Assembly (NCBI GenBank): GCA_027406905.1
Contig: DAHZHT010000005.1
Span: 50,080 to 114,079, forward strand
Source of the DNA: Elusimicrobiota bacterium
GTDB lineage: Bacteria; Elusimicrobiota; Elusimicrobia; UBA1565; UBA9628
Direction: 5' to 3'
DNA length: 64,000 nt
Both the position numbers and the translations under genes were made by a program. Under the pieces are notes generated by a model that saw nothing but the letters and a program-made list of their open reading frames with translations, had not been told where the DNA came from and did no database searches. How positions within the stretch are numbered: position 1 is the stretch's first letter; every line of letters begins with the position of its first letter. Shown piece by piece: positions 2,620 to 44,840 of the stretch.

Positions 2620-2629
2620 TTTCATTTAC

Positions 2630-2711: not shown

Positions 2712-2718
2712 AATTTTA

Positions 2719-4580: not shown

Positions 4581-4586
4581 GGCAGA

Positions 4587-10661: not shown

Positions 10662-11420
10662 ATGAAAAGACGTTTCTCTGCGGCTTTTTTGCTTGGAATC
10701 ATTCTCGGTCTCGGGGGAGAGACTCTTCTTCTATCGAAAACTGCCTCGAGGCGTTTCGCCGATAATTTGAGGAGAGATTTCCGCGTTCTTTTCTTTATGC
10801 CGGAAAAATCATCGCCACAAACTCTCTTAAGCGCTCAAAAATCAGTGGGCGCAATAGCCGGAACCCAATCCTCCGTTTTAATTTCTCCGGAAAAAGCTCT
10901 CTCAATTCTCAAGCAAGCGGATCCAGAATTGGCGCAAAATCTTTCTTTCTTGCCCACAAATCCAATAGCGCCAATCGTCGAAGCGACTTTAAACAAGAAA
11001 GGCCTCCTCTCTTTTCAATCCTGGATGGCTCAGGCCGCCGCTCAACAAAAATGGACCGAAATACGTTATCAACCGGAAGAGCTTAAATCTATTTTAAGAC
11101 TCGGGCTATATCTGCGTTTTCTGACCGTGGCGCTGACCGCTCTTCTATGCCTTTCTTCTGTTTTGTTGGTTTTAGGAGTGATTTTCCCTCTCATGGTTTT
11201 TTCAAAACGCTCCCCGCGCAAGATGATTGAGCTTCTTTCTCTTAGCGCGAAAACTTTCGGGGTTTGCCTTGTCGGCGTCTGCCTTGGGGGAATTTTTTCC
11301 GCCGCTTTTGCCTGGCCCCTGGGCCGCGCCATAGAGTGGTGGAGGTGGCCTTCCCTTTTAACTCAAGCGATATTCATTATTCCTGCGGCGCTCTCGGGCG
11401 CGATTTTATGCGTTTGGTAA
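10662..11420 (+). CDS. FtsX-like permease (cell-division ABC transporter permease family)
   Basis: One N-terminal TM helix, a periplasmic loop, then three C-terminal TM helices. Sits immediately upstream of a coiled-coil M23 (EnvC-like) gene and ctpA. No FtsE-like ATPase gene is adjacent. Confidence 0.55.
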   Translation: MKRRFSAAFLLGIILGLGGETLLLSKTASRRFADNLRRDFRVLFFMPEKSSPQTLLSAQKSVGAIAGTQSSVLISPEKALSILKQADPELAQNLSFLPTNPIAPIVEATLNKKGLLSFQSWMAQAAAQQKWTEIRYQPEELKSILRLGLYLRFLTVALTALLCLSSVLLVLGVIFPLMVFSKRSPRKMIELLSLSAKTFGVCLVGVCLGGIFSAAFAWPLGRAIEWWRWPSLLTQAIFIIPAALSGAILCVW

Positions 11421-16023: not shown

Positions 16024-16919
16024 TGAGGAATCAACAAAATCTGCGCCAATTCGCCTAATCTCTCGCTATTTAAATTAAGCCCCGCGTTTTGATAGACCGC
16101 CATTAAATTGCGCAAAAGCCGCATCAAAATATGGGAATTAGAGACCGGTCTTAAAACGCTTGGATCATAACTAAACCCGTTTTGGGCCAAACGCTTGCGC
16201 ATTCCGGAAACGTCGAGGGTTTTATTTAAAATGGGATCCCAGAACAAAGACGGGCGCCCGAGCCCGACAATAAAATGGCCCGGAAGACCAATCCCGAAAG
16301 CTGGAATTTTAAGCCGGCGCGCCAATATCAGGAAAAGAATGGACAAGCTGAGGGGCGTTCCCCGCCGCATTTCAATGACCCGGTTTAAATAGTTATTGTC
16401 CGGATCGTAATAGTTTTCCTCATTAATGCGAAAGCCCATGGCGTTGGAAAGAAAGGAGTGGAGGCGCTTAAAGGCCGTCGTCGAATTTTCGGAAGAGGAA
16501 ATATCGCTTTTAATTTTATCCGCGACATGGTCCAACCACTTGCGATAAATCCTTTCATCGAGAAGGGGATAGGCAAAACGCGCGATCAAAAAAGCTCCTT
16601 TTTCCAAATCTCTCTTGGCTTCGCTTAAACGCGCGAATTTCTCAAATTCCTTTTTAGTTTCTCCAAAGACAACGTCTGAGATAAGCCCTTTGGCCTTTTC
16701 AAAAAGCGGAGGATGAGAACGCTCCAAATCCATCAAATAAGGGAGAATTGGCGCTCCGATTTTGAGGATATGATCTCTTACCAAGGAGGCGCTATTGGGC
16801 TCTTCGTCTTCAAGCAACAAGACCAGGCTTCTTAAATTGCGGTCTCTCCCGGTTTTTCCCGCGCGAGCCTTTGTCTTCTCCATACTGGATATTGTATCCC
16901 CTGCCGCTGACTTTTTCAA
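16020..16919 (-). CDS. SirB1/YchA (UPF0162) family transglutaminase-like protein
   Basis: RRGTPLSLSILFLILARRLKIPAFGIGLPGHFIVG matches the family core. Confidence 0.6.
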   Translation of the reverse strand: MKKSAAGDTISSMEKTKARAGKTGRDRNLRSLVLLLEDEEPNSASLVRDHILKIGAPILPYLMDLERSHPPLFEKAKGLISDVVFGETKKEFEKFARLSEAKRDLEKGAFLIARFAYPLLDERIYRKWLDHVADKIKSDISSSENSTTAFKRLHSFLSNAMGFRINEENYYDPDNNYLNRVIEMRRGTPLSLSILFLILARRLKIPAFGIGLPGHFIVGLGRPSLFWDPILNKTLDVSGMRKRLAQNGFSYDPSVLRPVSNSHILMRLLRNLMAVYQNAGLNLNSERLGELAQILLIPQ

Positions 16920-18568
16920 TATGCGCCGCTTCTTACGATATTGGCCGCCTGGATAGAGCCCGAAGCGGCGAGCAATTTGGATAAAATCTTGCGCCCCTCT
17001 AAATCATGGGTCAAATCGTAAACGAAAATCGAGTTTCCGGCGGTGAAAGCGGGAGTTCTCTTTTTAAGCCAGGAAAATACATTCTTATCGGAAAAATAGA
17101 CCGCCTGGAGATTGGTTTCCGAAATGGCGAAGAAAAGCGGCCCGGAATTATCCGGAAGGACCGTCCCATCGCGACGGTCGACATTGGAATAAAACGCCAG
17201 AGGAAAGTATCGGATTCCTTCATATGAGGGATCGGCGACCCCAAAATAAGAAAGAATGATCGGTGGATTGCCGCGCTTTTTTAGTTCCCGTCCCAAATCT
17301 TTCAAGCCCTGCCCCCAATCCAGGCTCGAGTCGGCGAGCAGATGATAACCGCCGCCAGGCCCTCCGGTCAACTCGTTAAAATAAACGAGATAATGGGGGT
17401 AGACCCGAAATACGCTCAACGCCGTCCAAAGCGCGGCAACGATGAAAGTGGCAGCAAACATCGCTTGAGAGAGTCGAAGTTTTAAAGCGGCGACGGCGCG
17501 AGCGGCAAAAACAATCAAAAAAGGATAAATGGGGAGAATATGGCGATAGCCGATATCGGTTTTAGAAATTAAGGCCGCGATAAAGTAAGCCACCGGGGGC
17601 ATTAATAGCCAAATCTCCCTCTCGGAAGGCTTTTTTAACGCCAAATAAATCCCAAGCGCGGCCAAAAGAAGGAGCGGAATCGGGGTTTTGACCGCGAGAG
17701 CCACAGGGAAAAAATCCCAGAATCCATTTTGGCTATAGCGGCCCCATAAAAAAGACGGACGGCCGTGACTGAGTCTTGTCAGTGTTTGCGCAAGCCCGCC
17801 CCAATAAAGGGAAAGACCGCTCAAGCGGTAAGCGAACGCAAGAATCAACGCCGCTAGAAAGACAAAAATGAGAATTTGAGAAATTTTTGGCTGGCGCTTG
17901 GGAGACACCCGCGCCTCGGTTAAAAGAGCGCTGACAATGACTATCGGAAGGATAATCATGCTAAATTTTGAGGCCAAAGCCCCTCCCAAACACAATCCGG
18001 ACAAGGCCCAATCACCAAAGCCGCGATGAGGGCGGGAAAGGAAAAAACAGGTCAAAAAGTAAAAGACAGCCGGCATCGCGTCGGTGGTCGCCAGCGCAAA
18101 ATTGGAAAAAATCGGCGGGCAAAAGGCGAGGAAAAAAGACGCCGCAAGAAAGGCCGTCTCCCGGCCCAAACTCCAAGACCAAATCAAAACTGCGGGAAAC
18201 AAAATTAAAAGAAGACTGATTAAATTCCAAATTCGGGCGGAATTAAGCAAGCGAGAAGCGTCAACCCGATTTTTATAGATGAATTGATCCGAAAAATTAT
18301 AAAGCCTCCCGAAATCGGGATTTAGGGTCATGGTGGAAGGATTTAAAAAAAGAAGCGGAAAAGCCCCCCATATTTCCGCTAAGGGAGGATGATCGCGCCA
18401 GTTCAGCGGCGGCAATTGGGTTTTAAGCGCGAGATATCCGCTCGCCAAATGGACGGGCTCGTCATAGGTCGCGGATGAATCTTCAATCTGGGAAATTCCA
18501 AAAAATACCGCGGTAAAAAACGCGGCCAAGGCCGCCGCTGCCAGCCCCATTATTTTCGCCTTCGACAC
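16916..18568 (-). CDS. GT-C fold glycosyltransferase (family 39, ArnT/PMT-like polyprenyl-phosphate-sugar-dependent transferase)
   Basis: More than 10 predicted TM helices. N-terminal loop with acidic motif typical of GT39. 550 aa. Confidence 0.65.
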   Translation of the reverse strand: MSKAKIMGLAAAALAAFFTAVFFGISQIEDSSATYDEPVHLASGYLALKTQLPPLNWRDHPPLAEIWGAFPLLFLNPSTMTLNPDFGRLYNFSDQFIYKNRVDASRLLNSARIWNLISLLLILFPAVLIWSWSLGRETAFLAASFFLAFCPPIFSNFALATTDAMPAVFYFLTCFFLSRPHRGFGDWALSGLCLGGALASKFSMIILPIVIVSALLTEARVSPKRQPKISQILIFVFLAALILAFAYRLSGLSLYWGGLAQTLTRLSHGRPSFLWGRYSQNGFWDFFPVALAVKTPIPLLLLAALGIYLALKKPSEREIWLLMPPVAYFIAALISKTDIGYRHILPIYPFLIVFAARAVAALKLRLSQAMFAATFIVAALWTALSVFRVYPHYLVYFNELTGGPGGGYHLLADSSLDWGQGLKDLGRELKKRGNPPIILSYFGVADPSYEGIRYFPLAFYSNVDRRDGTVLPDNSGPLFFAISETNLQAVYFSDKNVFSWLKKRTPAFTAGNSIFVYDLTHDLEGRKILSKLLAASGSIQAANIVRSGAY

Positions 18569-32222: not shown

Positions 32223-33725
32223 TTAGGACGCTTCCAAAATTTTTCTCTTGAGGATAACCCTCATTGATCTTCTGGTTTCATCAACGGCGATCTGGCCAAA
32301 TTTTTGTTTAAGCATTTCTAAAAAACCCGGGTCAGAATGGTATTTCATCCAGGCATAATCGCGGAAAGATAAAACCTCTTTTGCGCTCAGATGTTTTGTC
32401 GGCAATGGAAGGGTGTGATACGAATGTTGGGAAAAACCAGAGTAGCTCTTCGGCAGTTCCCAACCCGCTTTTTTAGCCATTCCATGCAGAGGGCTTCCCG
32501 GATAGGCCATCGCGGAATAAAAATTGGCCTCCTCCGTTCTCATTTCAAGCGCCAAATTCAACGTGGCTTGCATGCTTGACTGATCATCCTCCGGAAGGCC
32601 GAAAATATAGTTGGCGATGACGTTAATTCCGTGTTCTCTTATTTTTCTAACAACAGAGCGAATGTCAACGTCCTCAAATCGACCCTTGGTCACATCTTTG
32701 CGCACAAGAGAATTTGCGCTTTCAATTCCCAAGGCCAGCCAGTTGATTCCGGCCTTTTTCATCGTCTCAAGATAGCGATCCTTGACCGTATCCACTCTGG
32801 AATAACACCAAATATTAAAATTGTATCCTCGCTCAATAATAAGCTGGCACAGTTCTAAAAAATGATTCGGATTAAGAACAAAAAGCTCATCGGCAATTTT
32901 GATGTTCTTAATTCCTTGAGAGGCGAAATAATCGAAATCTCTGATAATATGTTTGGGATCCCAATAACGAAAAATAGCGCTCCCATCAGAAAATTCATTT
33001 TTTTGCCGATTGATGATATTGATCATGCAGAAAGAGCATTTCATTGGGCAGCCGAGACTTGTGTAAAGGGCCGCAAAAGGCTGCCTTTGAGATTGATTCG
33101 GATAAGAATGCCAGAGCGAAGTCCTATAATTTTTCATGGGAAGCAAATCCCAGGCGACTCCAGGCAAATCTTTTGGTAAATCTTCCTTGGCCACGATCGG
33201 AGAGGGAGAATTGAAAATGACTTTTCCGTTCTCTCTGTAACCGAGCCCAAGCACTTTGTCCAATCGATCGGAAAGATTTCCAGCTAAAAGGTTAGACAGG
33301 GTGTAAACTCCTTCGTTTTGACAAACAAAGTCTATGCTGGGATGCTTCCCCATCACTTCTTGAGGCAAGGCCGCGACATGTCCACCCACAAAAATAATTT
33401 TAATTTCCGGGAAATTCTTCTTAAGATGATCCGCCAGAGCCGTGGCTCCCTCCATATTCTGAGAACTCGCGGAAGGTTGCTGTCCATAAACCACGAAACA
33501 GGCAAGGCGGGGATTCAGATTTATAGTATGGGAAACGGCTTCATCATCCGTTAAGCGCAATGCTTCACAATCCAAGAGGTCAACGCGGTATCCTTTCATG
33601 CGACAGTGAGAGGCAAGCATTCCGGCCCAGATGGGCGGTTCAATCGCGGAGAAATCCTCGCTTAAATCCTGATAAACGCGATGTCCCGAATTGGAATGAA
33701 TAAAAAGAACATCAAGTTGATTCAT
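32223..33725 (-). CDS. cobalamin (B12)-binding radical SAM enzyme (class-B-like)
   Basis: N-terminal B12-binding Rossmann-like region. CxxxCxxC as CPMKCSFC. 500 aa. Confidence 0.75.
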   Translation of the reverse strand: MNQLDVLFIHSNSGHRVYQDLSEDFSAIEPPIWAGMLASHCRMKGYRVDLLDCEALRLTDDEAVSHTINLNPRLACFVVYGQQPSASSQNMEGATALADHLKKNFPEIKIIFVGGHVAALPQEVMGKHPSIDFVCQNEGVYTLSNLLAGNLSDRLDKVLGLGYRENGKVIFNSPSPIVAKEDLPKDLPGVAWDLLPMKNYRTSLWHSYPNQSQRQPFAALYTSLGCPMKCSFCMINIINRQKNEFSDGSAIFRYWDPKHIIRDFDYFASQGIKNIKIADELFVLNPNHFLELCQLIIERGYNFNIWCYSRVDTVKDRYLETMKKAGINWLALGIESANSLVRKDVTKGRFEDVDIRSVVRKIREHGINVIANYIFGLPEDDQSSMQATLNLALEMRTEEANFYSAMAYPGSPLHGMAKKAGWELPKSYSGFSQHSYHTLPLPTKHLSAKEVLSFRDYAWMKYHSDPGFLEMLKQKFGQIAVDETRRSMRVILKRKILEAS

Positions 33726-33830: not shown

Positions 33831-34826
33831 ATGAAGGCTCCTTTTTATTCCTCTCTCTCTAGCGGCATGAGAGATTGGAAGCTCTACCGACTCATGCTTA
33901 AAATCAGGATGTCGGAGCAGAAAATTATTGATATTTATCCGAGCGATAAAATACAGAGCCCCATTCATCTTTCGATAGGACAAGAAGCCGTGGCTGCCGG
34001 TGTTTGTCTCGCCCTTAAATCCAGCGATCGAATTTATGGCACATACCGGGGACATGGAATTTACATTGCAAAGGGGGGAGATCTTGGGAAGATGTTCTCC
34101 GAGCTCTACGGAAAAGAAACCGGCTGTTCCAGAGGAAAAGGGGGATCCATGCATCTCTCCGCTCCGGAAGTCGGATTAGTCGGATGTTCAGCGATTGTTG
34201 GCAGTTTTATTCCCGTAGCCACGGGAGACGCTTTGGCCGCTCAAATGCGAAAAGATTCTCGCGTGGTCTGTTCGTTTTTTGGAGATGGAGCCGTTGATGA
34301 GGGCGTTTTTTTTGAAAGCGTTAATTTCGCCATTCTTAAAAATCTTCCCATTGTTTATGTTTGCGAGAACAATGGCTATGCGATCCACTCAAAAGTTTTG
34401 GATCGCCACAAACAGCCTTCCCTCGCCCGTCTCGTCTCTGGTCTCGGCTTGATTGGAAAACGCCATGATGGGAATGACGCTCCTGTCGTTTTTAAAACAA
34501 TGAGCCAAGCCATCACTCAAGCGCGTAAAGGCAAAGGCCCCGTTTTCCTGGAATATATGACCAATCGATGGCATGAACATGTCGGCCCCGGAACAGATTA
34601 TCAGGAGTCTTATCACTCCCCCAAAGACAAAGAAAATAATTCGCGCAATGACCCCATCAAAAAAATGGAAAAAATTTTGAAAAAACGGAAGGGATTTTCA
34701 CTCAGGGCGGATATTCTCAAGAAAGAAATTCAAAATGAGATAGACCAGGCCGTCAATTTCGCGGAGAAAAGCCCTTTCCCGTCCCTTCAGTCGCTTTATC
34801 ATGATCTTTATGCGGAGTCTCGATGA
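33831..34826 (+). CDS. thiamine-diphosphate-dependent dehydrogenase E1 alpha-like subunit
   Basis: ThDP-binding motif GDGAVDEGVFFESVNFA...CENNGYAI. Similar to pyruvate/acetoin dehydrogenase E1 alpha. Confidence 0.8.
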   Translation: MKAPFYSSLSSGMRDWKLYRLMLKIRMSEQKIIDIYPSDKIQSPIHLSIGQEAVAAGVCLALKSSDRIYGTYRGHGIYIAKGGDLGKMFSELYGKETGCSRGKGGSMHLSAPEVGLVGCSAIVGSFIPVATGDALAAQMRKDSRVVCSFFGDGAVDEGVFFESVNFAILKNLPIVYVCENNGYAIHSKVLDRHKQPSLARLVSGLGLIGKRHDGNDAPVVFKTMSQAITQARKGKGPVFLEYMTNRWHEHVGPGTDYQESYHSPKDKENNSRNDPIKKMEKILKKRKGFSLRADILKKEIQNEIDQAVNFAEKSPFPSLQSLYHDLYAESR

Positions 34827-35854
34827 AAAGGATGAATTACGGCCAAGCTATTCGTTCGGCGCTTCTCCATTCCATGGAACAAGATTCCTCTATTTTTATC
34901 ATGGGAATTGGAGTTGACGATCACAAGGCTGTTTTTGGAACAACGGCTGGATTGGTTGGGCGTTTTGGGAGAAATCGCGTTTTTGACACCCCCATTTCAG
35001 AATCTGGAATGACGGGCATCGCCATAGGAGCGGCCTTGGCGGGCATGAAGCCAATCCATATTCATATTCGCTCCGATTTCCTTTATCTTGCCATGGATCA
35101 GATCGCCAACATCGCCGCCAAGTGGTCTTCCATGTTTGGAGGCAACGCTTCCGTCCCGTTAGTCATTCGCTCCATCGTTGGACGAAGTTGGGGGCAAGGG
35201 GCGCAGCATTCTCAAAGCTTGCAATCGCTCTTTATGCATATTCCAGGCCTTAAGGTTCTCATGCCGACAACACCTTCCGAGGCGCAAGGCCTTCTTATCG
35301 CGGCGATCCAAGATCCTAACCCCGTACTAATTTTTGAGCATCGGCTTCTCTATGATATTATCGGAGATGTTCCCGATACGCCGACTGCGTTGCCGCTTGG
35401 CCGCGCGATAATTCGCCGAAAAGGAAGCGATATGACTCTTGTCGCCGGATCATATATGGCGGTAGAAAGCTTAAAGGCCGCAGAGTTTCTGTCCAAACAT
35501 GGCGTGGAGGCGGAAATTGTAGATCCAGTGTCTCTTGTCCCCCTGGATGAAAATAGAATTTTAGCATCCGTCGCAAAAACGGGGAGGGTCATCGTTATTG
35601 ATTCCAGCTGGACCACTTGCGGAATGAGCGCCGAGATCGCCGCCCTTATCGTTGAAAAAGGATTTCATTTCCTCAAAGCTCCGATACGCCGTCTTGGAAT
35701 GCAGCCCGTTGTCTGCCCCGTGAGCAAACCCCTGGAAGCAGCTTTCTATCCTAACGCAAAACTGATTGCCGCAGAGGCATTAACAATGCTGGGACGGGAT
35801 TTCCCAAAAACTCCCGCGCCTGAATTGCTCAACACGTTCAAAGGACCTTTTTAA
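34823..35854 (+). CDS. E1 beta-like (transketolase-type pyrimidine-binding and C-terminal domains) subunit
   Basis: Similar to 2-oxoacid dehydrogenase E1 beta. 4-nt overlap with the E1 alpha gene. Confidence 0.8.
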   Translation: MKRMNYGQAIRSALLHSMEQDSSIFIMGIGVDDHKAVFGTTAGLVGRFGRNRVFDTPISESGMTGIAIGAALAGMKPIHIHIRSDFLYLAMDQIANIAAKWSSMFGGNASVPLVIRSIVGRSWGQGAQHSQSLQSLFMHIPGLKVLMPTTPSEAQGLLIAAIQDPNPVLIFEHRLLYDIIGDVPDTPTALPLGRAIIRRKGSDMTLVAGSYMAVESLKAAEFLSKHGVEAEIVDPVSLVPLDENRILASVAKTGRVIVIDSSWTTCGMSAEIAALIVEKGFHFLKAPIRRLGMQPVVCPVSKPLEAAFYPNAKLIAAEALTMLGRDFPKTPAPELLNTFKGPF

Positions 35855-35855
35855 C

Positions 35856-37028
35856 ATGTTGCGCTATTACCTTGCTGAAGATACTATTAACCATTCCGAT
35901 GTTGACCGGCTTATCTCTTGGCTTAAAACCTATCCGCGCCTGACCAAGGGAGAAGTGACCCTTGATTTTGAGAACAAATGGGGACAATGGCTCGGGCGCG
36001 AATATTCCATCTTTTGCAATTCCGGCTCTTCCGCCAATCTTCTTATGTTTTACGCCCTTCTTCTCTCAAAGCGTTTAAAAAATAAAAAAATTATCGTCCC
36101 AAGCGTTGGCTGGGTCACTTCAGTGGCGCCAGCCATTCAATTCGGTTTTGAGCCCATTATGTGTGAGGCCGATCCTGAAACATTTGGCCTTGATCTTTCT
36201 CACCTGGAAATCCTGCTCAAACGTCATCGCCCCGGGGCGGTCATGCTTGTTCAGGTCTTGGGCGTTCCCCACAAAATGGACGAAATATTGAAACTTAAAA
36301 AGCGCTATGGGTTTCTTCTGCTTGAAGATGCCTGCGCCGCCGTTGGCGCTGAGTATCATGGAAACAAAGTGGGAACATTCGGAGATATGGCCAGTTTTTC
36401 CTACTATTTTGGGCACCAATTTTCCACGATTGAAGGGGGAATGGTTTCAACGAACGATAAGCACCTGGCAGACCTTTTGTTGATGTTGCGCAGTCACGGC
36501 TGGAGCAAGGATTTAGATGCGACAACTCATAAAAAATTAATTCGACAATATCGTGTTGATGATTTCCACAGTCCGTTTGTATTTTATGAGCCGGGGTTTA
36601 ATCTCCGATCAACCGATCTTAACGCCTATATTGGATTAGGCCAGATAGAAAAACTGTCCATGATCATAAAGGCTCGCCAAAAAAATCACTCTCAATATTT
36701 AAATCGCCTCGGTGATTATTTTTACACGCAAAAATGGGACAAAGAATCTCGCGTTTGCAGCATTTCATTTGGTCTTCTCGCAAAAAACAGAAGTGAGCGC
36801 GCGGCGGTTGTCTCGGCCCTTAACTCCCATGGAATTGAAACTAGAATTTTCTCCGCTGGAAACTTGGGCCTTCACCCTTTTTGGGTCAAGCGATACGGCA
36901 AGGCAAGTTTTCCTTTCGCCGATCGAATTCACCACACGGGATTTTTCCTTCCCAACAACCCCTCGCTTTCAGCCAAAAACATTGATTTTATATCGGATGT
37001 CGTTCTTGCCGCCGCTTTAAGAACATGA
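35856..37028 (+). CDS. DegT/ColD-family PLP enzyme, predicted nucleotide-sugar 3-dehydratase (catalytic Lys position replaced by His)
   Basis: Segment VGTFGDMASFSYYFGHQFSTIEGGMV...LRSHGWSKDLD resembles the ColD/E1 dehydratase subgroup of DegT proteins, where His replaces the Schiff-base Lys. Confidence 0.65.
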   Translation: MLRYYLAEDTINHSDVDRLISWLKTYPRLTKGEVTLDFENKWGQWLGREYSIFCNSGSSANLLMFYALLLSKRLKNKKIIVPSVGWVTSVAPAIQFGFEPIMCEADPETFGLDLSHLEILLKRHRPGAVMLVQVLGVPHKMDEILKLKKRYGFLLLEDACAAVGAEYHGNKVGTFGDMASFSYYFGHQFSTIEGGMVSTNDKHLADLLLMLRSHGWSKDLDATTHKKLIRQYRVDDFHSPFVFYEPGFNLRSTDLNAYIGLGQIEKLSMIIKARQKNHSQYLNRLGDYFYTQKWDKESRVCSISFGLLAKNRSERAAVVSALNSHGIETRIFSAGNLGLHPFWVKRYGKASFPFADRIHHTGFFLPNNPSLSAKNIDFISDVVLAAALRT

Positions 37029-37111
37029 AGAAAATTGCCCGCAAAACAAATCGCGTTCTCATTACTGGAATTGGGGACGGAATGACCAAGATGAGACGAA
37101 GGAAATCATAG
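37025..37111 (+). pseudogene. 28-codon stub of a Rossmann-fold (NAD(P)-binding) gene truncated by the IS remnant
   Basis: MKKIARKTNRVLITGIGDGMTKMRRRKS*. The ATG overlaps the stop of the ColD-like gene (ATGA). GxGxxG-like ITGIGDG is followed by immediate divergence and a stop. Confidence 0.5.
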
Positions 37112-37950
37112 GGCGAGTTCCGTTATGCCGATTTCAATCGTGAATCCGCTCAATTGGGGTTTTTTCACCGGGAAATAATTAGTTGTTGAGGGGCACTGGT
37201 GTCCGGGGAAAATCAGAACTCGAAGCATAGTTGAGGTTCCGTATTCCGCAACATGGATAATTTTCTCTCCGGTAGCCGCAGCAAATCGATCAGGCTGAGG
37301 CGATCCAAAAGGGTATTCTGAACGAGCTGTTGGAGCGGACAAGCGAGCGATGAAAGCGACATTGAAACTTGATGTAGGCCAGGAGCAAAAAGTACGTCAT
37401 GGACGCCCAAACCTGCGTGAGCACGGCGTTCTTGGAGGTGCCGAGGAACGTCTTTATCCGAAGGTGCGGCGTGATCCACTTGAAGAAAAGCTCCAGACAG
37501 AGGTCGATAGTGCCGGAATCGAAAGCGCACACGGGGTTTTTGAAGCGAAATTGATGATTGGGGGCGATGGCCTGGCAGCGCTCCAGAAGCTGGTAGAAGA
37601 GTTTCTCCATGATGCGGGAATCGCGTTTGGCGTTGGCGTCGGCCAAGGTCGATCGCTTCACGGCGGGCAATCCCCAGGTGGTAGAGCTTGGGCTCCTGGG
37701 TCTCCAGGGCGGTCTGGATGTCGCACAGGCTATTCTTGTTGGCGGCTTGAGCATACAGCAGCACCGTCAGTTGGTTCCAGGTCGAGAACTTTTTGACGTA
37801 ATGGTCTCCGCCGAAGTCGGAAACGGCTTGGTCGAACTGATGTCGGGGCAAAAGCGTCAACAACTGGTTCATGATTGTGTTAGAATACATTTGAAGAGTC
37901 CTCCGTCGGTATATTTAGCTTGCTCAGCACAAGTATTCTGCCAATGATGG
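37112..37950 (-). mobile_element. IS4-family insertion sequence remnant (3'-truncated)
   Basis: Two consecutive minus-strand reading frames give an IS4-family transposase N-terminal half (LLPRHQFDQAVSDFGGDHYVKKFSTWNQLTVLLYAQAANKNSLCDIQT; RSTLADANAKRDSRIMEKLFYQLLERC). No catalytic DDE C-terminal half. No inverted repeats identified. Confidence 0.65.
37213..37890 (-). pseudogene. frameshifted, truncated IS4-family transposase
   Basis: Covers ORFs 37213..37890 and 37290..37754, which are in different frames. Together they span about 250 aa, where a full-length transposase is more than 400 aa. Confidence 0.65.
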
Positions 37951-37998
37951 AGGATTCTTCGCTTTTAACCGGACACGAGTGATTGAGGGGCCAAATTT

Positions 37999-38937
37999 AT
38001 GAGAATGCGTATTTTTTTGACTGGCGGTAGCGGAATGGTTGGCAGAAATTTTCTTGAACATTCTGCCATAAGCGGATTCGATGTACTCGCCCCACACAGG
38101 AATGAGCTTAACTTGTTGGATTTTCAGGCAGTGACGGCATACGTTCGCGCACATAACCCTGATATTGTCATTCATGCCGCCGGTCGAGTGGGCGGTATTG
38201 AGGCCAATATGCGGGAGCCTGTTCGCTTTCTGATGGAAAACATGGATATGGGGCGCAATGTTGTTTTGGCGGCGCGTTCCATCGGAGTAAAGAAATTGTT
38301 GAATCTGGGGAGTTCTTGCATGTATCCTAGGAATGCCCCTAATCCACTGCATGAAGACATGGTGCTGAGCGGCGAACTAGAGCCAACCAATGAAGGATAT
38401 GCGCTTGCCAAGGTTGTTGTCGCGCGTCTATGTGAATATATTTCTCGCGAGAATCCGGAATATAAATACAAGACATTAATCCCGTGCAATCTCTATGGCC
38501 GCTATGACAACTTCGAACCATCGCGATCGCATTTGATGCCGGCAATTATTCATAAAATCCAAGAGGCTAAGTCCTCTGGATCAAGTGAAGTCACAATATG
38601 GGGTAATGGTATCGCGCGGCGAGAATTTATGTACGCTGGCGATTTGGCGGATTGCTTGATTGAGTCCGTTCGTCGTTTTGATAGTCTTCCCAATGTTATG
38701 AATGTGGGCGTTGGAGAAGATGCCAGCGTTGATGATTACTACAAAACCACTGCTGAAGTTATCGGTTATGGAGGCAAATTCACGCATGACTTAACCAAAC
38801 CGGTTGGAATGATGCGTAAGTTAGTATCGACGCAGAGGGCACAAGAGTGGGGATGGCGCGCTACAACTTCTTTGCGCGAAGGAATCAGGAAAGCATATGA
38901 CTTTTATGTGCAAGCATCAAAATTGAGAGTGGTATAA
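37999..38937 (+). CDS. fcl: GDP-L-fucose synthase family 3,5-epimerase/4-reductase (Fcl/ColC-like)
   Basis: Colinear with Fcl: MRIFLTGGSGMVGRN, LGSSCMYP, LEPTNEGYALAK, NLYGRYDNFEPSRSHLMPA, TIWGNGIARREF. Confidence 0.85.
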   Translation: MRMRIFLTGGSGMVGRNFLEHSAISGFDVLAPHRNELNLLDFQAVTAYVRAHNPDIVIHAAGRVGGIEANMREPVRFLMENMDMGRNVVLAARSIGVKKLLNLGSSCMYPRNAPNPLHEDMVLSGELEPTNEGYALAKVVVARLCEYISRENPEYKYKTLIPCNLYGRYDNFEPSRSHLMPAIIHKIQEAKSSGSSEVTIWGNGIARREFMYAGDLADCLIESVRRFDSLPNVMNVGVGEDASVDDYYKTTAEVIGYGGKFTHDLTKPVGMMRKLVSTQRAQEWGWRATTSLREGIRKAYDFYVQASKLRVV

Positions 38938-39046
38938 ATGGAAAACTATTACACTCTAGCCAGCACGACATGGAATGAGTCGGAACACTGGCGTATTCGA
39001 GTGGAAAAAAGATGGAAAGAGGCTTAGGGTTCTGCGGTAGAATAAA

Positions 39047-39991
39047 ATGAAAAAAGAAAAAATACTCATAACGGGGGGAGCGGGATACCTTGGATCGGTG
39101 ATGACTCGCCTTTTCCTTGAAACAGGCTATCACGTGCTTGTTCTGGATAATTTTATGTATGGACAATCCAGCCTTCTGGATTTTTGTGTTTTTGATTCTT
39201 TTGAAGTTGTGCGTGGAGACTGCCGCGATGAAGCTCTTATGAAAGGCCTCATCAAGGACGTGGATGCGGTCATTCCCTTGGCCGCATTGGTTGGCGCCCC
39301 TATCTGCAACCGCGATAAAATCGCCGCTGCGACCACCAATAGAGACGCGATCCAAATGCTCTGCCGCATAGCCGCCCCATCTCAAAAAATTCTTTTCCCC
39401 GTCACAAACAGCGGATATGGAATAGGAGAGAAAGGGAAATTTTGCACCGAGGAGAGTCCGCTGCGGCCAATTTCTTTTTACGGCCAAACAAAGGTTGAAG
39501 CGGAAAAAGCCATCTTGGATCGAGGCAATGGAATAACTTTTAGATTAGCGACAGCCTTTGGCGCTTCCCCCCGGATGCGAATGGATCTCCTGGTCAACGA
39601 TTTTGTCTACCGCGCGCTGGTGGACCGAGCTCTCATAGTGTTTGAGGGACACTTTAAGCGTAATTATATCCATGTCAGGGATATCGCGCGAGTTTTTCTT
39701 CATGGATTAAATAATTTCGAGACGATGAAAAATCAAACCTACAACGTGGGTCTTGAAGATGCCAACCTTTCAAAAATTGAGCTCTGCGCTCTTATTCAAA
39801 AAACTCTTCCGCAATTTGTCTATCACCAAGCGGAGATAGGAGAAGATCCCGATAAGCGCGATTACATCGTTTCTAACGCAAAAATACTCGCCACGGGATT
39901 TAAGCCCCAATGGAGCATCGAACGCGGAATCAAGGAACTCATTAAATGTTACACCGCTCTTGGAAAGGTCAATCTCTATGGAAATATTTAG
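39047..39991 (+). CDS. NAD-dependent epimerase/dehydratase (extended SDR)
   Basis: ILITGGAGYLGS Rossmann motif and YGQTKVEAEK (YxxxK). Lacks the T(D/E)xVYG motif of 4,6-dehydratases. Confidence 0.7.
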   Translation: MKKEKILITGGAGYLGSVMTRLFLETGYHVLVLDNFMYGQSSLLDFCVFDSFEVVRGDCRDEALMKGLIKDVDAVIPLAALVGAPICNRDKIAAATTNRDAIQMLCRIAAPSQKILFPVTNSGYGIGEKGKFCTEESPLRPISFYGQTKVEAEKAILDRGNGITFRLATAFGASPRMRMDLLVNDFVYRALVDRALIVFEGHFKRNYIHVRDIARVFLHGLNNFETMKNQTYNVGLEDANLSKIELCALIQKTLPQFVYHQAEIGEDPDKRDYIVSNAKILATGFKPQWSIERGIKELIKCYTALGKVNLYGNI

Positions 39992-39997
39992 AACCCG

Positions 39998-40993
39998 ATG
40001 ATCATCACTCGAACTCCCTTTCGCATGTCTTTTTTTGGCGGCGGAACGGATTATCCCGATTGGTATCGTGAGCATGGCGGAGCGGTTGTCGCCGCGACTA
40101 TCGACAAATATTGTTACATCACCTGCCGCTATTTGCCACCGTTTTTTAATTACAAGAGCCGCATTCTCTATTCAAAGATAGAATTAGTCGAAAATAATTC
40201 AAAAATTGAACATCCCGCCGTCCGCGCCGTTTTATCCGAATTGGGCATCGATTCAGGATTAGAAATTCATCATGATGGAGATCTTCCCGCCCGCACGGGT
40301 CTTGGTTCAAGTTCGGCTTTTCTTGTAGGCCTTCTCCATGCTATTTCCGCTTTAAAAAATCGAATGTCAACAAAAATGGAACTGGCAAAGACGGCGATAC
40401 ACGTTGAACAAACCGTGCTGAAAGAGAATGTCGGCTGCCAAGATCAGGTCATTACCGCCTTTGGCGGATTACAACGCATCGATTTTCAAAAAAGGGGCGA
40501 TATTCATATCAACCCCATTGTTATCAGCGAAGAGCGGCTGAAATTCCTGGAAAGTTCGGTCCTTCTCTATTTTACCGGCTTTTCCCGTATTGCCTCGGAA
40601 ATTGTTAAAGAGCAACTACAAAACATTCCTCAAAAAGCCCACGAGCTTTTACGCATTCGCGAGATGGTCGATGAATCAATTGAAATCCTCTCTGGAAATG
40701 GCGATTTAAACGAGTTTGGCAAACTCCTGGATGAAAGCTGGGAGCTTAAAAGAAGGCTCAGCTCCAAGGTTTCCTCCCCTGCTATTGATGAAATCTATAA
40801 AGCCGCGAAATCAGCCGGGGCTTTGGGCGGAAAAATCATGGGCGCCGGCGGCGGGGGATTTATGATGTTGTTTGCCCCCCCCGAAGCTCATCCGCGCATT
40901 CATGAAAAGCTAAAACATCTTTTAAGAATCCCCTTTCATTTTGAAAACGAGGGCAGTCACATTATTTACTATCACCCCAATGGAGGTCGCTAA
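39998..40993 (+). CDS. GHMP-family sugar kinase (heptose-7-phosphate kinase HddA / fucokinase-like)
   Basis: N-terminal TPFRMSFFGGGTDYPDWY and GHMP motif PARTGLGSSSAFLVGLL. Confidence 0.7.
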   Translation: MIITRTPFRMSFFGGGTDYPDWYREHGGAVVAATIDKYCYITCRYLPPFFNYKSRILYSKIELVENNSKIEHPAVRAVLSELGIDSGLEIHHDGDLPARTGLGSSSAFLVGLLHAISALKNRMSTKMELAKTAIHVEQTVLKENVGCQDQVITAFGGLQRIDFQKRGDIHINPIVISEERLKFLESSVLLYFTGFSRIASEIVKEQLQNIPQKAHELLRIREMVDESIEILSGNGDLNEFGKLLDESWELKRRLSSKVSSPAIDEIYKAAKSAGALGGKIMGAGGGGFMMLFAPPEAHPRIHEKLKHLLRIPFHFENEGSHIIYYHPNGGR

Positions 40994-41693
40994 CGCCATC
41001 GAAGTAGATGCCATAATTCTTTGCGGAGGGCAAGGCCGCCGCCTCGTGAAAGTTCTCCCTGACTTGCCTAAAGCTCTTGCCCCTATTGGAAACAAATCTT
41101 TCCTCGATATTCTACTCGACTACGCTGTCCAAGAAGGACTGCGGCGTTTTATTTTTTGCCTTGGACACCGCGCAAGCGCCATAGAAGAGAGATTAAGCGC
41201 GCGGCAGGATTGCGATATCGTTTTTTCAAAAGAGACCGTTCCGCTTGGGACCGCTGGCGCTCTCAAATTATGCGAACCATTGAGAAGAAGTCGAACATCC
41301 CTAGTGATGAATGGCGACTCTCTATGCAATTTCAACATCAAGGAGTTTCTTAAAGCCCATGTAGAAAATAACGCTTCGGCAAGCGTCGCGGCGGTCATGG
41401 CGCCCGATAGAGATGACGGCGGATTTATCGAGTTCGCAAAGGATTATCAGATCACGCGATTTAATGAAAAATATGGAAGCGCGAAATATATTAACGCTGG
41501 AGTTTACGCGCTCAACTCCGAGCTTTGGGGGAAAATTCCCCCAGAGCGACCCTGTTCCATCGAGAAAGACGTCTTCCCGCAACTCGTGGGACACGGCCTT
41601 TTCGCCTGGCCCACTCACGCGCCACTTTTTGACATTGGAACTCCGGAACGCCTTGAGGCTTTTCGGCTCTTATATGCTAGTAGAGATCCTTGA
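40980..41693 (+). CDS. sugar-1-phosphate nucleotidyltransferase (HddC / GDP-sugar pyrophosphorylase-like)
   Basis: AIILCGGQGRRL...LPKALAPIGNKSFLD. About 238 aa. Overlaps the kinase gene end. Confidence 0.7.
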   Translation: MEVANAIEVDAIILCGGQGRRLVKVLPDLPKALAPIGNKSFLDILLDYAVQEGLRRFIFCLGHRASAIEERLSARQDCDIVFSKETVPLGTAGALKLCEPLRRSRTSLVMNGDSLCNFNIKEFLKAHVENNASASVAAVMAPDRDDGGFIEFAKDYQITRFNEKYGSAKYINAGVYALNSELWGKIPPERPCSIEKDVFPQLVGHGLFAWPTHAPLFDIGTPERLEAFRLLYASRDP

Positions 41694-42876
41694 TTTTATC
41701 GCAGACATGCTCCGCGAATGGAATCGCACAGGTAAATCCGGGCGAAACGGCGTTGAGCACGTGCAGGGAGCGATTGTCTCCTTCGACGACAAAATCCATC
41801 TCGAGCTTCATTGTCTCGATATTCAACAGCTGGGCGCGCATGCCTGGCAGCCCCCATTTCCTGAAATTTTCAGGCCGCACTCCTTTCAATAAACGCCCCG
41901 CCAAAGCGGCCATTCTCTGCGCGGAATACTTTTGGAATTCCTCCAGGGCCAACCTCTTAAAATCAAAATCTGAATAAAAGAGAAGTCCTATATTTCTTGC
42001 CGTGATTTCAAGCATTTCTTTAAGAGAAAAGCCCTCCAGGCCCGCGTACTGCTCTCTCCAAAACGCCGGGATGGCCGTTGGACCAATATGGACGTTTCCA
42101 TTCGCCGCGAGGGTAAAGTGAACTCCGAGAAAGGGATTGCGGATATCGGGCACGGGATAGACATTCGTCCGAACGGAACCGACAGGCTCTGTCGAATTAA
42201 GATAAAGCCCTTTAAAAGGCACGATGCGGTGACGCTGTGAAAACCCAAAATCGCGAGCGATTTTATCAGCATAGAGGCCCGCCGCGTTGACCACATATCC
42301 CGCTTTGATAACTCCGGCGCTCGTGCGTACGCCATTAGGACCCACGGACAAATAGGCTTCATTTTCTCGAATATCGACCCCCTCGCTGATTGCGTCTTGG
42401 CGCAGAGATTCCATGACTTGAAACGGGTCGACCGTGGATGTCGTAGGGGAGAAAAGGGCTTTTTCATAAGTCAAGACTCGAGGTTCTATCTCTTGAGCTT
42501 CTTTCGAACTCAACATCCAAAGCGGAACCCCATTGGCTTTTCCTCGACGCATTAGTTCCTCAAGGGCCAGAATATCCTCGGGACCCTGGGCGACGACCAG
42601 TTTCCCGCAGCGGTTGAGTGGAATATTTTTATCCTCGCAATAACGAGTCAAGGCTTTGTTCCCCGATCTAGCCAATTGAGCTTTTAAGCTGTCGGGAAAA
42701 TAATAAAATCCGGCATGGATGACGCCGCTATTGCGCCCGCTGGCATGGAGGCCGCATCTCTTCTCTTTTTCCAGAACGGCGACGGAACAGTCCGGATGGA
42801 GAACTTTAAGTTCTCGGGATATTTGTATCCCGATGATTCCACCGCCGATAACGACAAAATCCCGCGATTCTATCAC
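41677..42876 (-). CDS. FAD-dependent oxidoreductase, L-2-hydroxyglutarate oxidase (LhgO)-like
   Basis: DFVVIGGGIIGIQISRELKVLHPDCSVAVLEKE...GLHASGRNSGVIHAGFYY, consistent with the LhgO/DAO family. Confidence 0.7.
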   Translation of the reverse strand: MIESRDFVVIGGGIIGIQISRELKVLHPDCSVAVLEKEKRCGLHASGRNSGVIHAGFYYFPDSLKAQLARSGNKALTRYCEDKNIPLNRCGKLVVAQGPEDILALEELMRRGKANGVPLWMLSSKEAQEIEPRVLTYEKALFSPTTSTVDPFQVMESLRQDAISEGVDIRENEAYLSVGPNGVRTSAGVIKAGYVVNAAGLYADKIARDFGFSQRHRIVPFKGLYLNSTEPVGSVRTNVYPVPDIRNPFLGVHFTLAANGNVHIGPTAIPAFWREQYAGLEGFSLKEMLEITARNIGLLFYSDFDFKRLALEEFQKYSAQRMAALAGRLLKGVRPENFRKWGLPGMRAQLLNIETMKLEMDFVVEGDNRSLHVLNAVSPGFTCAIPFAEHVCDKIKDLY

Positions 42877-42882
42877 GATCTC

Positions 42883-44127
42883 TCAGGAATTTTGCTGGAG
42901 TTCGGAAGATGGAAATATCCGCGAAAGAGCGGCTCCGGAGAAAATAATCAATAGGGCTAAGGCTGGAAGCTGGTAGCGATTGTCCCAATACCCGACGAAA
43001 ATGTGAAGACTGTAGTAGCAAAATCCCGCAAAGGCAAGAGTAGAAGCTATTGTCCAATTTGTACGCCGTAAATACATTTCCCAAAAGGCAAGAATCAAGG
43101 TCGCTAGTTCAAAAACCCAAAGGACAGCCCTAATCACAATGGGCCCCCAACGTCCTTCTTGGCGATAAACGGAAATGGGTTGATCAATCCCGAACATCGC
43201 CGAATGGCTGGTCAACCAAAAATGAATCAGGCGAGACGGGAGTTTAAAGATCAATCGCGGCCAATTGGCTTTATAATTATTCAAGGCCATCCGATAAAAT
43301 TCGGCATCCGTCTCGATCTCGCTTCTCCCCACGGCCACCTGTTTTTGGACTGCCCCAACGTCGAGAGGGCGGGAAAGCTGCGAACCGCACCAAAGCGCGG
43401 GCCCTCCCCCTGTCGCCACCGGAATCCAAACTCCCATGACCTGTTTGTTTCTCAAAGACCAAGGAAGAAGCGTTAAGTAGGCGCACAGGAGAACTCCCGC
43501 AAGATGCCGCAACAGGCGCGGTTTTTTATGATGGAAAAGAAGAATAAGGAATGCGGCTCCTGGAGGAAATAAAATAAGGCTGGGCCGACAGAGAATCGCC
43601 AGTCCAAGCACAAAGCCCGCGAAAGCAAACAACCACTCCAGATTTTTCTTTAAATTTGACTCAAAAGCGTAAAGTAAAAGACAAAGGGCGGACGACCATG
43701 TCATGATAAACAGAGTCTCCGTCATAATTTCCGCGGTATAAGCGATAAAAACAGGATGAAGAGCGTAAAAGGCCGCCCCAAAAATCGCTCCCCTGCGTTC
43801 ATTGAGAGCATAAAGACCAAAAAGATAGATAAGCCCGATCGTTATTGTGTCTAAGAATGCTTGCGCTGCGCGCGCGTAAAACCACGGCCTATTGGAAAGC
43901 ATGACAAAAATAGAAAGGAATGCCGGATATAAAGGAGGGCGTATCGCCGTAGGCTGATTTCTAATCATGGAAAATTCGCCATGGAGGGCTATATTTTGGG
44001 CAATGCCGGCATACTCTACGCTATCTCCCAACAAAGGCGCCGATCTTTTTACCACCACCATGCTGATTCGAAGGATAAATCCCATGACCAAAACAATAAA
44101 CAAAGGATTTCTTAAAAAATTTTTCAT
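42883..44127 (-). CDS. GT-C fold glycosyltransferase (family 39 ArnT/PMT-like), second copy
   Basis: Polytopic membrane protein. Start set at MKNFLRNPLFIVLVMGF, whose ATG overlaps the GT2 stop (ATGA). Confidence 0.6.
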   Translation of the reverse strand: MKNFLRNPLFIVLVMGFILRISMVVVKRSAPLLGDSVEYAGIAQNIALHGEFSMIRNQPTAIRPPLYPAFLSIFVMLSNRPWFYARAAQAFLDTITIGLIYLFGLYALNERRGAIFGAAFYALHPVFIAYTAEIMTETLFIMTWSSALCLLLYAFESNLKKNLEWLFAFAGFVLGLAILCRPSLILFPPGAAFLILLFHHKKPRLLRHLAGVLLCAYLTLLPWSLRNKQVMGVWIPVATGGGPALWCGSQLSRPLDVGAVQKQVAVGRSEIETDAEFYRMALNNYKANWPRLIFKLPSRLIHFWLTSHSAMFGIDQPISVYRQEGRWGPIVIRAVLWVFELATLILAFWEMYLRRTNWTIASTLAFAGFCYYSLHIFVGYWDNRYQLPALALLIIFSGAALSRIFPSSELQQNS

Positions 44128-44840
44128 TTCGATCCCTTCCGCCGCCAATAGAAAATTTCTCGAAGGATCTGTGCCATATAGGCTAAACCCCAACGCACAA
44201 TTTGGAGCTTCCGGTCTCCGCCTAGGCGCTTTGGCTCATCTCCAGGAATTTCCGTCACTCTCAGACGTGTTTTTGCGCAGCGGACGGAAAGGATAGGTTC
44301 CCAACTGATGCGTGTACAAAAAAATTTCTCCGGCGTGTAGGTCGAGTCCTTATCTAAATCAAGCAACCCAATAAGGTCTTTCTTATACGCGCGATACATG
44401 ACCATGGCGTCAGTGTATTGTCCGCCAAAAAGGAAGTTGATTGTATAGGTAAAAAGCCAATTGCCAAAAGCGGTCATGAAATCATCATCTTCGCTTTTGG
44501 CGCCGGCCAGGTAGCGAGACACAATCACCATGTCATAACCTTCTTTGATTTTCTCAATCAATGGGGGAATTAATTCTGGGAGAGAATTCCCATCAGGGCT
44601 GAAGGTGATAATGACATCACCTTTGATTAAGCTCATTGCTTCCAAATAGCCATGGCGCAACCCGCGCTCTTTCTGAACGATAACATCAAATCCCTGAGAA
44701 TGACAATACCCCACCGTGCCATCATTAGAGCCGCCATCAAGGACTAAAATTTGGTCAACCCAACGGCGATCAATAAGCGGCATAATTTGACGCATCCCAA
44801 TTTCTTCATTTAAGACTGGAACCAAAAGGGTGGTCTTCAT
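44124..44840 (-). CDS. GT2 polyprenyl-phosphate sugar synthase (ArnC/DPM1-like)
   Basis: VPVLNEE...ILVLDGGSNDGT...DxD-type motifs. 238 aa. Confidence 0.75.
   Translation of the reverse strand: MKTTLLVPVLNEEIGMRQIMPLIDRRWVDQILVLDGGSNDGTVGYCHSQGFDVIVQKERGLRHGYLEAMSLIKGDVIITFSPDGNSLPELIPPLIEKIKEGYDMVIVSRYLAGAKSEDDDFMTAFGNWLFTYTINFLFGGQYTDAMVMYRAYKKDLIGLLDLDKDSTYTPEKFFCTRISWEPILSVRCAKTRLRVTEIPGDEPKRLGGDRKLQIVRWGLAYMAQILREIFYWRRKGSK

Follow-up and report, generated by a model that had tools for sequence, protein, structure and literature searches.

A kinase and nucleotidyltransferase gene pair as the predicted entry to a GDP-heptose tailoring cassette in an Elusimicrobiota bacterium

Described pathways and the Elusimicrobiota gene pair

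Characterised HddA/HddC systems pair a sugar kinase of the GHMP family with a sugar-1-phosphate nucleotidyltransferase (NTase) of about 230 amino acids and are linked to an enzyme that modifies GDP-heptose at C4. In Bacteroides Fkp (L-fucokinase/fucose-1-phosphate guanylyltransferase), a GHMP kinase acting at C1 and a guanylyltransferase form a single polypeptide of about 950 amino acids, with the NTase at the N-terminus and a free 6-deoxyhexose as the substrate. The subject here is a kinase gene followed by an NTase gene in a 64,000-nucleotide stretch of contig DAHZHT010000005.1 (assembly GCA_027406905.1) from an Elusimicrobiota bacterium, the whole of which is called the window below. A sequence-only reading of the window had proposed a GHMP kinase with a small NTase at 39998-41693, either as an HddA/HddC-like heptose pair or as a split Fkp serving the salvage of a deoxyhexose. 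From family placement, conserved residues and the company that the genes keep, the pair is probably the part of a GDP-heptose tailoring operon that activates the sugar, and likely works in the HddA/HddC manner.

Several described systems bear on what may follow activation. Campylobacter jejuni HS:2 has Cj1427 (C4-dehydrogenase), Cj1430 (C3/C5-epimerase) and Cj1428 (C4-reductase), and HS:5 has a C3-dehydratase. The tightly bound NADH of Cj1427 is re-oxidised by alpha-ketoglutarate to give L-2-hydroxyglutarate, and in vitro Cj1427 and the C3-dehydratase together form GDP-D-glycero-3-deoxy-4-keto-heptose, the products being called novel (PMC10680097). In the YerE (yersiniose), AviB1/AviB2 and Pau11/Pau12 systems, a dehydratase of the His type provides a 3-deoxy-4-keto nucleoside diphosphate (NDP) sugar and a thiamine pyrophosphate (TPP) enzyme follows; for AviB1/AviB2 and Pau11/Pau12 the proposed reaction is the transfer of an acetyl branch from pyruvate to C4 (PMC4753412). 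Finally, SerA of serine synthesis transfers its hydride to alpha-ketoglutarate, which the flavoenzyme D-2-hydroxyglutarate dehydrogenase regenerates (PMC9504171).

Both open reading frames (ORFs) of the pair lie where they had been placed (Table 1), and their Pfam domains are far beyond chance. The kinase gene begins with ATG at 39998, ends with TAA at 40991-40993 and encodes 331 amino acids with the N-terminus MIITRTPFRMSFFGGGTDYP. The NTase gene begins with ATG at 40980 and ends with a stop at 41691-41693; its product contains ILCGGQGRRL as reported and is 237 amino acids long, the earlier figure of 238 being correct only as a codon count that includes the stop. The overlap, first put at about 14 nucleotides (nt), is exactly 14 nt (40980-40993). 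ORFs were called here as the longest possible, which for the NTase gives 250 amino acids from a TTG at 40941. ATG 40980 is the likely start, because the orthologue at locus L082 aligns from window position 40986 and the NTase genes of orthologous loci overlap their kinase genes by 4 nt. A strain of 99% DNA identity (loci L174 and L175) carries both genes, again with a 14-nt overlap. All genomic context described here was drawn from metagenome-assembled genomes (MAGs) and metagenome contigs. The order of kinase then NTase with overlapping frames is typical of this cassette and unlike characterised HddA/HddC; it also differs from Fkp, in which the two activities share one chain in the opposite order.

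Placement of the kinase and the nucleotidyltransferase

The kinase has the GHMP fold with both of its domains (GHMP_kinases_N, PF00288, 3e-15; GHMP_kinases_C, PF08544, 3e-14). Its best NCBIfam model is HddA at 139.7 bits, followed by Fkp (NF009948) at 97.9 bits against a cut-off of 721; the models for mevalonate kinase and galactokinase, the families named by the sequence-only reading as the competing homes for this protein, trail behind. Matches in the PDB are led by the Bacteroides heptose kinase 3K85 (3e-41), Burkholderia pseudomallei WcbL (1e-36) and C. jejuni Cj1425 (3e-32), with Fkp at about 1e-16 (62-66 bits). In WcbL, the changes R13A, D22A, S118A/S119A/S120A, Q162L and D163A each abolish activity (PMC4691232). 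The corresponding residues of the window kinase, R9, D18, S104-106, Q148 and D149, are all kept, that is, the catalytic Arg and Asp, the Ser-rich ATP loop and the Gln-Asp pair of the characterised enzymes. The R, D, Q and D of this set are invariant in 19 clade members, and the essential positions are kept in all members examined.

More than 8,000 database relatives of the kinase were found, the closest named ones being proteins from Elusimicrobia MAGs (70-78% identity), which points to an Elusimicrobiota genome as the origin of the window, and an exhaustive search gave 2,947 clusters of 50% identity at E<=1e-30. In a tree built by neighbour-joining, and hence rough as are all trees here, the kinase groups at 53-70% identity with proteins of Elusimicrobiota, Omnitrophota, Planctomycetota, Chloroflexota, phyla of the candidate phyla radiation (CPR), Acidobacteriota and Alphaproteobacteria. 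The resulting clade, 53-78% identical across more than eight phyla, is sister to the characterised HddA clade, and Fkp falls outside both; this is the placement of HddA against Fkp that had been proposed as a check. Since Bacteroides 3K85 falls among the proteobacterial HddA enzymes, the split between the clade and HddA is paralogous and not taxonomic. Judged by sequence, the kinase and the NTase form a distinct sister clade and are not strict members of the characterised HddA and HddC clades.

The NTase carries the NTP_transferase domain (PF00483, 4.9e-24). Among NCBIfam models it scores 110.6 bits with mannose-1-phosphate guanylyltransferase and 92.1 bits with HddC, and its PDB matches are 7WHR (2e-25) and Yersinia HddC, 5XHW (7e-25). 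Its GXGXR motif, G17-Q-G-R-R21, aligns with 10-GLGTR-14 of Yersinia HddC (YpHddC), and K31 matches K24. In YpHddC, Glu80 of the motif EXXPLGT(G/A)GA hydrogen-bonds N1 and N2 of guanine (PMC6981941); the window protein has E85, within ETVPLGTAGA, at that position, which is consistent with specificity for a guanine nucleotide. The ColD-like, Fcl-like and Cj1427-like enzymes encoded alongside all come from GDP-sugar families. The loop-4 motif L(S/A/G)X(S/G) fits at its last position alone (F59-C60-L61-G62 in the window protein vs L52-S53-L54-S55 in YpHddC).

The link to heptose comes chiefly from related loci, 80 of which were returned by a scan of a genome collection. The NTase is present in 60 of the 80 and lies directly 3' of the kinase in 52 of the 74 with room for it. 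Operons at L014 and L034 read GmhA-GmhB-Fcl-Cj1427L-kinase, GmhA is inside the operon at L008 and L039, and the order at L010 is kinase-NTase-GmhB. NTase::GmhB fusions lie next to or near the kinase at L038 (11189-12427) and L041 (14587-15834), and at L079 a GmhB::NTase fusion (11005-12282) adjoins it; hence both fusion orders exist. Kinases of these GmhA/GmhB-linked loci are 53-67% identical to the window kinase. That GmhB, a 7-phosphatase, is fused to the NTase in either order is difficult to account for if the kinase makes anything other than a 1,7-bisphosphate.

A number of points weigh against a heptose route. The kinase lies outside the HddA clade in the tree and is 29-33% identical to WcbL, Cj1425 and 3K85, which share 50-53% identity among themselves; the existence of a separate clade across many phyla may reflect a different substrate. 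The kinase score is far below the HddA equivalog cut-off of 600 (NF049969) and the NTase score far below the HddC cut-off of 300 (NF049965). Mannose-1-phosphate guanylyltransferases match the NTase slightly better than HddC does, and HddC-type enzymes accept mannose 1-phosphate too (PMC6981941). The Gln-Asp pair is no proof of heptose specificity, because Fkp carries the same pair and it does not discriminate heptose from hexose; for this reason Gln162 of WcbL, suggested as a heptose-specificity marker (PMC4691232), was dropped as such. Lastly, neither gmhA nor gmhB was detected in the 64-kb window by tblastn with the E. coli proteins or by Pfam scans (ORFs of at least 150 amino acids in 1-54839, nested ORFs excluded; beyond 54839 by tblastn only), so that the supply of heptose 7-phosphate is assumed. 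GmhB of C. jejuni is likewise encoded outside the heptose/capsule cluster (PMC10680097). As for the cut-offs, Cj1425 passes that of HddA with 636 bits, whereas the characterised WcbL (378) and 3K85 (433) fail it and YpHddC reaches 185.8 bits against the 300 of HddC, all calculated with PDB sequences rebuilt from printed alignments that lack the termini. Because characterised enzymes fail as well, missing these thresholds says little on function, and the equivalog cut-offs were set aside as an uninformative test of membership.

Some of these points would suit a hexose salvage pathway, in which the kinase would phosphorylate free mannose or a 6-deoxyhexose at C1, the NTase would make a GDP-hexose and the Cj1427-like enzyme would oxidise its C4. 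The best NCBIfam and PDB matches of the NTase are mannose-1-phosphate guanylyltransferases, mannose is bound by WcbL in crystals, YpHddC has been assayed on mannose 1-phosphate, and the window has no detected gmhA or gmhB. Such a pathway is nevertheless very improbable given that Fkp is an outgroup with far lower scores, despite sharing the GHMP C1 kinase, the guanylyltransferase, the Q-D pair and a GG(G/W)TD N-terminal motif with the window pair, and given the GmhA/GmhB neighbours and the two orders of NTase-GmhB fusion among orthologous cassettes. A 7-phosphatase has no role in a route from free hexose. Moreover, a mutase is the usual bacterial source of mannose 1-phosphate, which makes a kinase unnecessary. 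Of the two identities first offered for the pair, the split Fkp for deoxyhexose salvage is thus not supported by the tree and the scores. The HddA/HddC-like heptose pair is supported as to nearest families, residues and GmhA/GmhB context, with the genes adjoining or fused to the NTase at orthologous loci and absent from the window itself; it does not hold as to strict clade membership or equivalog cut-offs.

The tailoring cassette and its proposed chemistry

Ending 6 nt before the kinase start is a gene for an extended short-chain dehydrogenase/reductase (SDR) that matches Cj1427 (6VO6) with an E-value of 1.7e-114 and 56% identity over 309 residues, the next PDB match being 1e-22. By this similarity it is a predicted C4-dehydrogenase that gives a 4-keto sugar with no 6-deoxygenation. 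The sequence-only reading had noted the lack of a 4,6-dehydratase and had made any bypass of it depend on the import of a deoxysugar, an argument that is rejected here. No GMD-type 4,6-dehydratase was found in the window, where a 334-aa SDR of relatives used as the query matched two known SDR genes weakly; an imported deoxysugar is nonetheless unneeded, because 4-keto chemistry would begin without 6-deoxygenation. With the 4-keto intermediate supplied by the Cj1427-type enzyme, the ColD-like and Fcl-like enzymes would need no dehydratase to obtain their substrate.

The ColD-like protein of the DegT family has His187 at the position of catalytic His188 in ColD, which in aminotransferases is occupied by the Lys that binds pyridoxal phosphate (PLP). 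The position is corroborated by the H188N and H188K mutant ColD structures in the PDB, and a His stands there in 48 of the 50 DegT homologues from cassette loci, which suggests a 3-dehydratase. This gene and the dehydrogenase gene are naturally side by side in the window, whereas the two activities have been combined only in vitro in the C. jejuni work (PMC10680097). The alpha-like and beta-like genes related to the E1 component of pyruvate dehydrogenase (PDH) have NCBIfam scores below or near the PDH cut-offs and no E2 or E3 gene adjacent. By analogy with the Avi and Pau systems, whose TPP enzymes also have the two-subunit E1-like form, they are predicted to encode an enzyme that adds a two-carbon (acetyl) branch to the 4-keto sugar. 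The predicted substrate differs from the CDP- or dTDP-6-deoxyhexoses of the YerE, Avi and Pau systems in being a GDP-heptose that keeps O6, and here the enzyme is known from its genes. The Fcl-like SDR reaches 309.9 bits with the NCBIfam Fcl model, vs a cut-off of 500, and 6e-77 with Fcl in the PDB. The B12-binding radical S-adenosylmethionine (SAM) enzyme has HpnJ as its best NCBIfam match (148.6 bits, far below cut-off), and its role in modifying the sugar is likewise suggested by its context. Compared with the C. jejuni triad, the window shares the Cj1427 orthologue, the ColD-type 3-dehydratase and the Fcl-family reductase beside the activation genes; it has no separate cupin epimerase and adds the E1-like TPP enzyme, the radical-SAM enzyme and a lineage-specific L-2-hydroxyglutarate oxidase.

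Much of this set recurs in the 80 related loci: the Cj1427-like SDR in 66, the radical-SAM gene in 65, the DegT-family enzyme in 62 and the Fcl-like SDR in 60. E1 alpha-like (24/80) and E1 beta-like (17/80) genes are less frequent, and in many Omnitrophota cassettes they are replaced by shorter split TPP proteins of about 200 amino acids each, a variant unlike the YerE, Avi and Pau enzymes. In L020, L021, L025, L043 and other Omnitrophota loci (13-20 kb), the cassette sits within an apparent lipopolysaccharide (LPS) region. Genes of that region include heptosyltransferase-like ones of glycosyltransferase (GT) family 9, just under the NCBIfam cut-off, GT4 genes and a separate GmhB; apparent LptD and UDP-glucose-dehydrogenase-like genes were assigned by eye from sequence. 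The roles given to the cassette genes and their surroundings are all putative.

In 53 related loci a radical-SAM homologue of 69-76% identity immediately precedes the kinase gene, and the window enzyme shares 69-76% identity with the Omnitrophota copies, a level at which the kinase itself is less conserved (58-60%). This proximity bears on another possibility, namely that the substrate of the sister-clade kinase is some other sugar phosphate or one that has already been modified, such as a heptose phosphate altered by the radical-SAM enzyme, or another anomer or epimer. A clade that is 53-78% identical across more than eight phyla and only about 30% identical to HddA, from which it split by paralogy, would fit a change of substrate. 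Against this stand the separate position of the radical-SAM gene, on the opposite strand in the window and in Elusimicrobia relatives, and the conservation of the sugar-contacting residues of WcbL, which together make a changed substrate unlikely.

With the unmodified heptose phosphate retained as the probable substrate, the following route may be proposed. GmhA and a GmhB-type phosphatase, which takes off the 7-phosphate, would be encoded elsewhere in the genome, and the kinase and NTase would turn the seven-carbon sugar phosphate into GDP-heptose, kept in step by translational coupling through the overlap of 14 nt (4 nt in relatives). GDP-heptose would then go to the Cj1427-type dehydrogenase, which would oxidise C4 and pass the hydride through its bound NADH to alpha-ketoglutarate to form L-2-hydroxyglutarate. 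The ColD-type enzyme would 3-deoxygenate the 4-keto sugar while converting glutamate to alpha-ketoglutarate, and the E1-like TPP enzyme would probably C-branch it thereafter. The radical-SAM enzyme may modify the sugar and the Fcl-like SDR may reduce it, in an order that is here a suggestion. Gene anatomy, homology, conserved residues and synteny are the observed basis of this route, from which the identity of the substrate, the nucleotide specificity, the order of tailoring and the coupling to the oxidase described below are inferred.

The last tailoring step appears to differ between strains. Blastn aligns positions 1-1493 of L174 with window 35580-37072 and positions 2396-4634 with window 38982-41220, both at 99%. 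Between the ColD-like and Cj1427-like genes, L174 has a gene for a 331-aa GMD/Rmd-like SDR, about 900 bp of whose interior (L174 1494-2395) is precisely replaced in the window by a 1.9-kb segment. An insertion sequence (IS) remnant and the Fcl-like gene have taken the place of the L174 SDR gene, as if one final sugar-tailoring enzyme had been exchanged for another at the level of the strain. ORFs in other frames overlap the IS fragment, including one of 154 amino acids on the same strand.

Table 1. Features of the cassette and its surroundings, in window coordinates
Feature	Coordinates	Strand	Evidence
B12-binding radical SAM enzyme	32223-33725	-	Pfam B12-binding and Radical_SAM
PDH-E1 alpha-like and beta-like TPP enzyme	33831-34826 (alpha-like); 34823-35854 (beta-like)	+	Pfam E1_dh 1.2e-57; Transket_pyr/Transketolase_C
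ColD-type PLP/PMP (pyridoxamine phosphate)-dependent GDP-4-keto-sugar 3-dehydratase, putative	35856-37028	+	PDB ColD 2GMS 1.3e-54
Replacement segment, 1.9 kb (IS remnant and fcl-like gene)	37073-38981		blastn vs L174
Degraded IS transposase fragment, DUF4372 N-terminal domain	37213-37890	-	Pfam PF14294 2.2e-25
GDP-L-fucose-synthase-like SDR, predicted 3,5-epimerase/4-reductase of a GDP-4-keto sugar	37999-38937	+	NCBIfam Fcl; PDB Fcl
Cj1427-type extended SDR, predicted alpha-ketoglutarate-dependent GDP-heptose C4-dehydrogenase	39047-39991	+	PDB 6VO6/6VO8
GHMP sugar kinase	39998-40993	+	Pfam GHMP_kinases_N/C; HddA best NCBIfam model
Sugar-1-phosphate NTase, predicted heptose-1-phosphate guanylyltransferase (HddC-like)	40980-41693	+	Pfam NTP_transferase; HddC motifs
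L-2-hydroxyglutarate oxidase/dehydrogenase homologue	41677-42876	-	NCBIfam NF008726; E. coli LhgD similarity
PMT_2 (ArnT-like GT-C) glycosyltransferase	42883-44193	-	Pfam PMT_2 5.3e-16
GT2 polyprenyl-phosphate sugar synthase-like protein (AglJ/ArnC-like)	44124-44840	-	Glycos_transf_2 3.5e-14; NCBIfam AglJ-like 83 bits

The neighbouring oxidase and the wider meaning of the cassette

Convergent with the NTase gene, and overlapping its 3' end by 17 nt, is a gene for an L-2-hydroxyglutarate oxidase homologue that forms the last gene of a minus-strand glycosyltransferase operon. It scores 307.1 bits with NF008726, narrowly passing the cut-off of 299, and aligns with E. coli LhgD at 34% identity over its full length (6e-55). 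The GT2 and PMT_2 proteins of the same operon are probable users of the cassette sugar or its lipid-linked form. An oxidase of 74-75% identity holds the same convergent position in L082, L083, L088 and L171, four contigs of a second lineage with about 69% DNA identity to the window, in which the genes beyond the oxidase differ. There, as seen at L082, the oxidase gene closes an operon that also contains GT4, methyltransferase, LPG_synthase_TM and Wzy_C genes. None of the 80 more distant cassette loci has the oxidase, nor do seven closer relatives (L084-L087, L089, L172 and L173); its absence from the former led to its being dropped as a conserved cassette member, and it is therefore specific to certain lineages.

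A metagenome scan seeded with the oxidase extends the comparison beyond the cassette. Of the neighbour families at the 65 loci that have 1.2 kb or more of flanking sequence, the Cj1427-like SDR ranks second in frequency (11 loci). Three architectures of oxidase and SDR were seen: RfbF-oxidase-SDR-RmlC-like, oxidase-RmlC-SDR-RmlD-Gfo and RfbF-oxidase-SDR-cupin-PseC-like. In two of them the SDR matches Cj1427 better than any other PDB entry (98.5 vs 80.9 bits and 134.6 vs 82.7 bits), in the third Cj1427 comes second, and no 4,6-dehydratase is visible in the flanks of these clusters. The oxidases beside Cj1427-like SDRs score 312-340 bits, and SDR-associated oxidases occupy at least six separate positions in a rough oxidase tree. 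Oxidase equivalogs stand directly beside Cj1427-like SDRs in NDP-sugar clusters at L091, L105, L108, L109, L111, L112, L131, L151, L152 and L158, with genes for an RfbF-type cytidylyltransferase and for RmlC/RmlD-like and PseC-like proteins among their neighbours.

By analogy with SerA and its flavoenzyme partner, the oxidase may recycle the L-2-hydroxyglutarate formed in the Cj1427 reaction, a proposal with roughly an even chance of being right. It would re-oxidise L-2-hydroxyglutarate to alpha-ketoglutarate, thereby pulling C4 oxidation forward and preventing build-up of the by-product. The case differs from serine synthesis in that the enantiomer is L and the setting is sugar-nucleotide tailoring, and the coupling is read solely from gene neighbourhoods. 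Only slightly less probable than an even bet is that the adjacency is coincidental, or that the flavoenzyme serves a purpose unrelated to the Cj1427-type reaction, such as the oxidation of a lipid-linked sugar on behalf of the GT2/PMT_2 pair. The absence of the oxidase from the 80 distant and seven closer loci would then be expected, as would its co-transcription with glycosyltransferases in place of sugar-nucleotide genes and its narrow pass of the family cut-off (307 vs 299). Coincidence is harder to reconcile with a junction kept in two lineages that differ in the genes beyond it, and with independent oxidase lineages, scoring 312-340 bits, that adjoin Cj1427-like SDRs in CDP-glucose-type and RmlC/RmlD-type clusters with no visible 4,6-dehydratase.

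Three further observations come from elsewhere in the window. A second PMT_2-family glycosyltransferase gene (550 amino acids) is followed by transglutaminase-like and mandelate-racemase/enolase-family genes at 16020-18568 on the minus strand. A stand-alone homologue of the RmlD dTDP-4-dehydrorhamnose reductase lies beside rimP-nusA-infB at 8872-9780 (minus strand), with no rmlA, rmlB or rmlC nearby. On the plus strand, genes for an HNH endonuclease and a calcineurin-like metallophosphoesterase share 4 nt of overlap (18660-20215), and the two may be a small mobile or defence-related pair.

Taken alone, the kinase and NTase are an ordinary sugar-activation module, and the interest lies in the cassette and its link to the oxidase. 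The open-access literature on the cassette or on a link between the oxidase and sugars yielded the C. jejuni work alone, which is weak evidence of absence. The kinase marks out a large sister clade of HddA, still uncharacterised, which moves from phylum to phylum together with an unvarying set of tailoring enzymes; for that reason many uncultivated bacteria are likely to carry an undescribed heptose-derived sugar on their surface. In its fullest form the proposal is a tentative one, with the odds somewhat against all of its parts holding together: the pair would be the entry to a widespread, horizontally mobile and undescribed GDP-heptose pathway of Elusimicrobiota, Omnitrophota, Planctomycetota, Chloroflexota, CPR and some Proteobacteria, its product a new 3-deoxy, C4-branched, radical-SAM-modified higher-carbon sugar for LPS or envelope glycans, and the L-2-hydroxyglutarate oxidase would be a dedicated recycling partner of the Cj1427-type 'ping-pong' NDP-sugar 4-dehydrogenases. 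The recurrent link to the oxidase makes alpha-ketoglutarate directly testable as the oxidant of Cj1427 in vivo and points to a general way of making NDP-4-keto sugars with O6 retained. If the proposal is true, it would be the first genomic evidence for alpha-ketoglutarate and L-2-hydroxyglutarate as the physiological redox couple of Cj1427-type enzymes, and the recycling would extend to CDP-type and RmlC/RmlD-type clusters without a 4,6-dehydratase.

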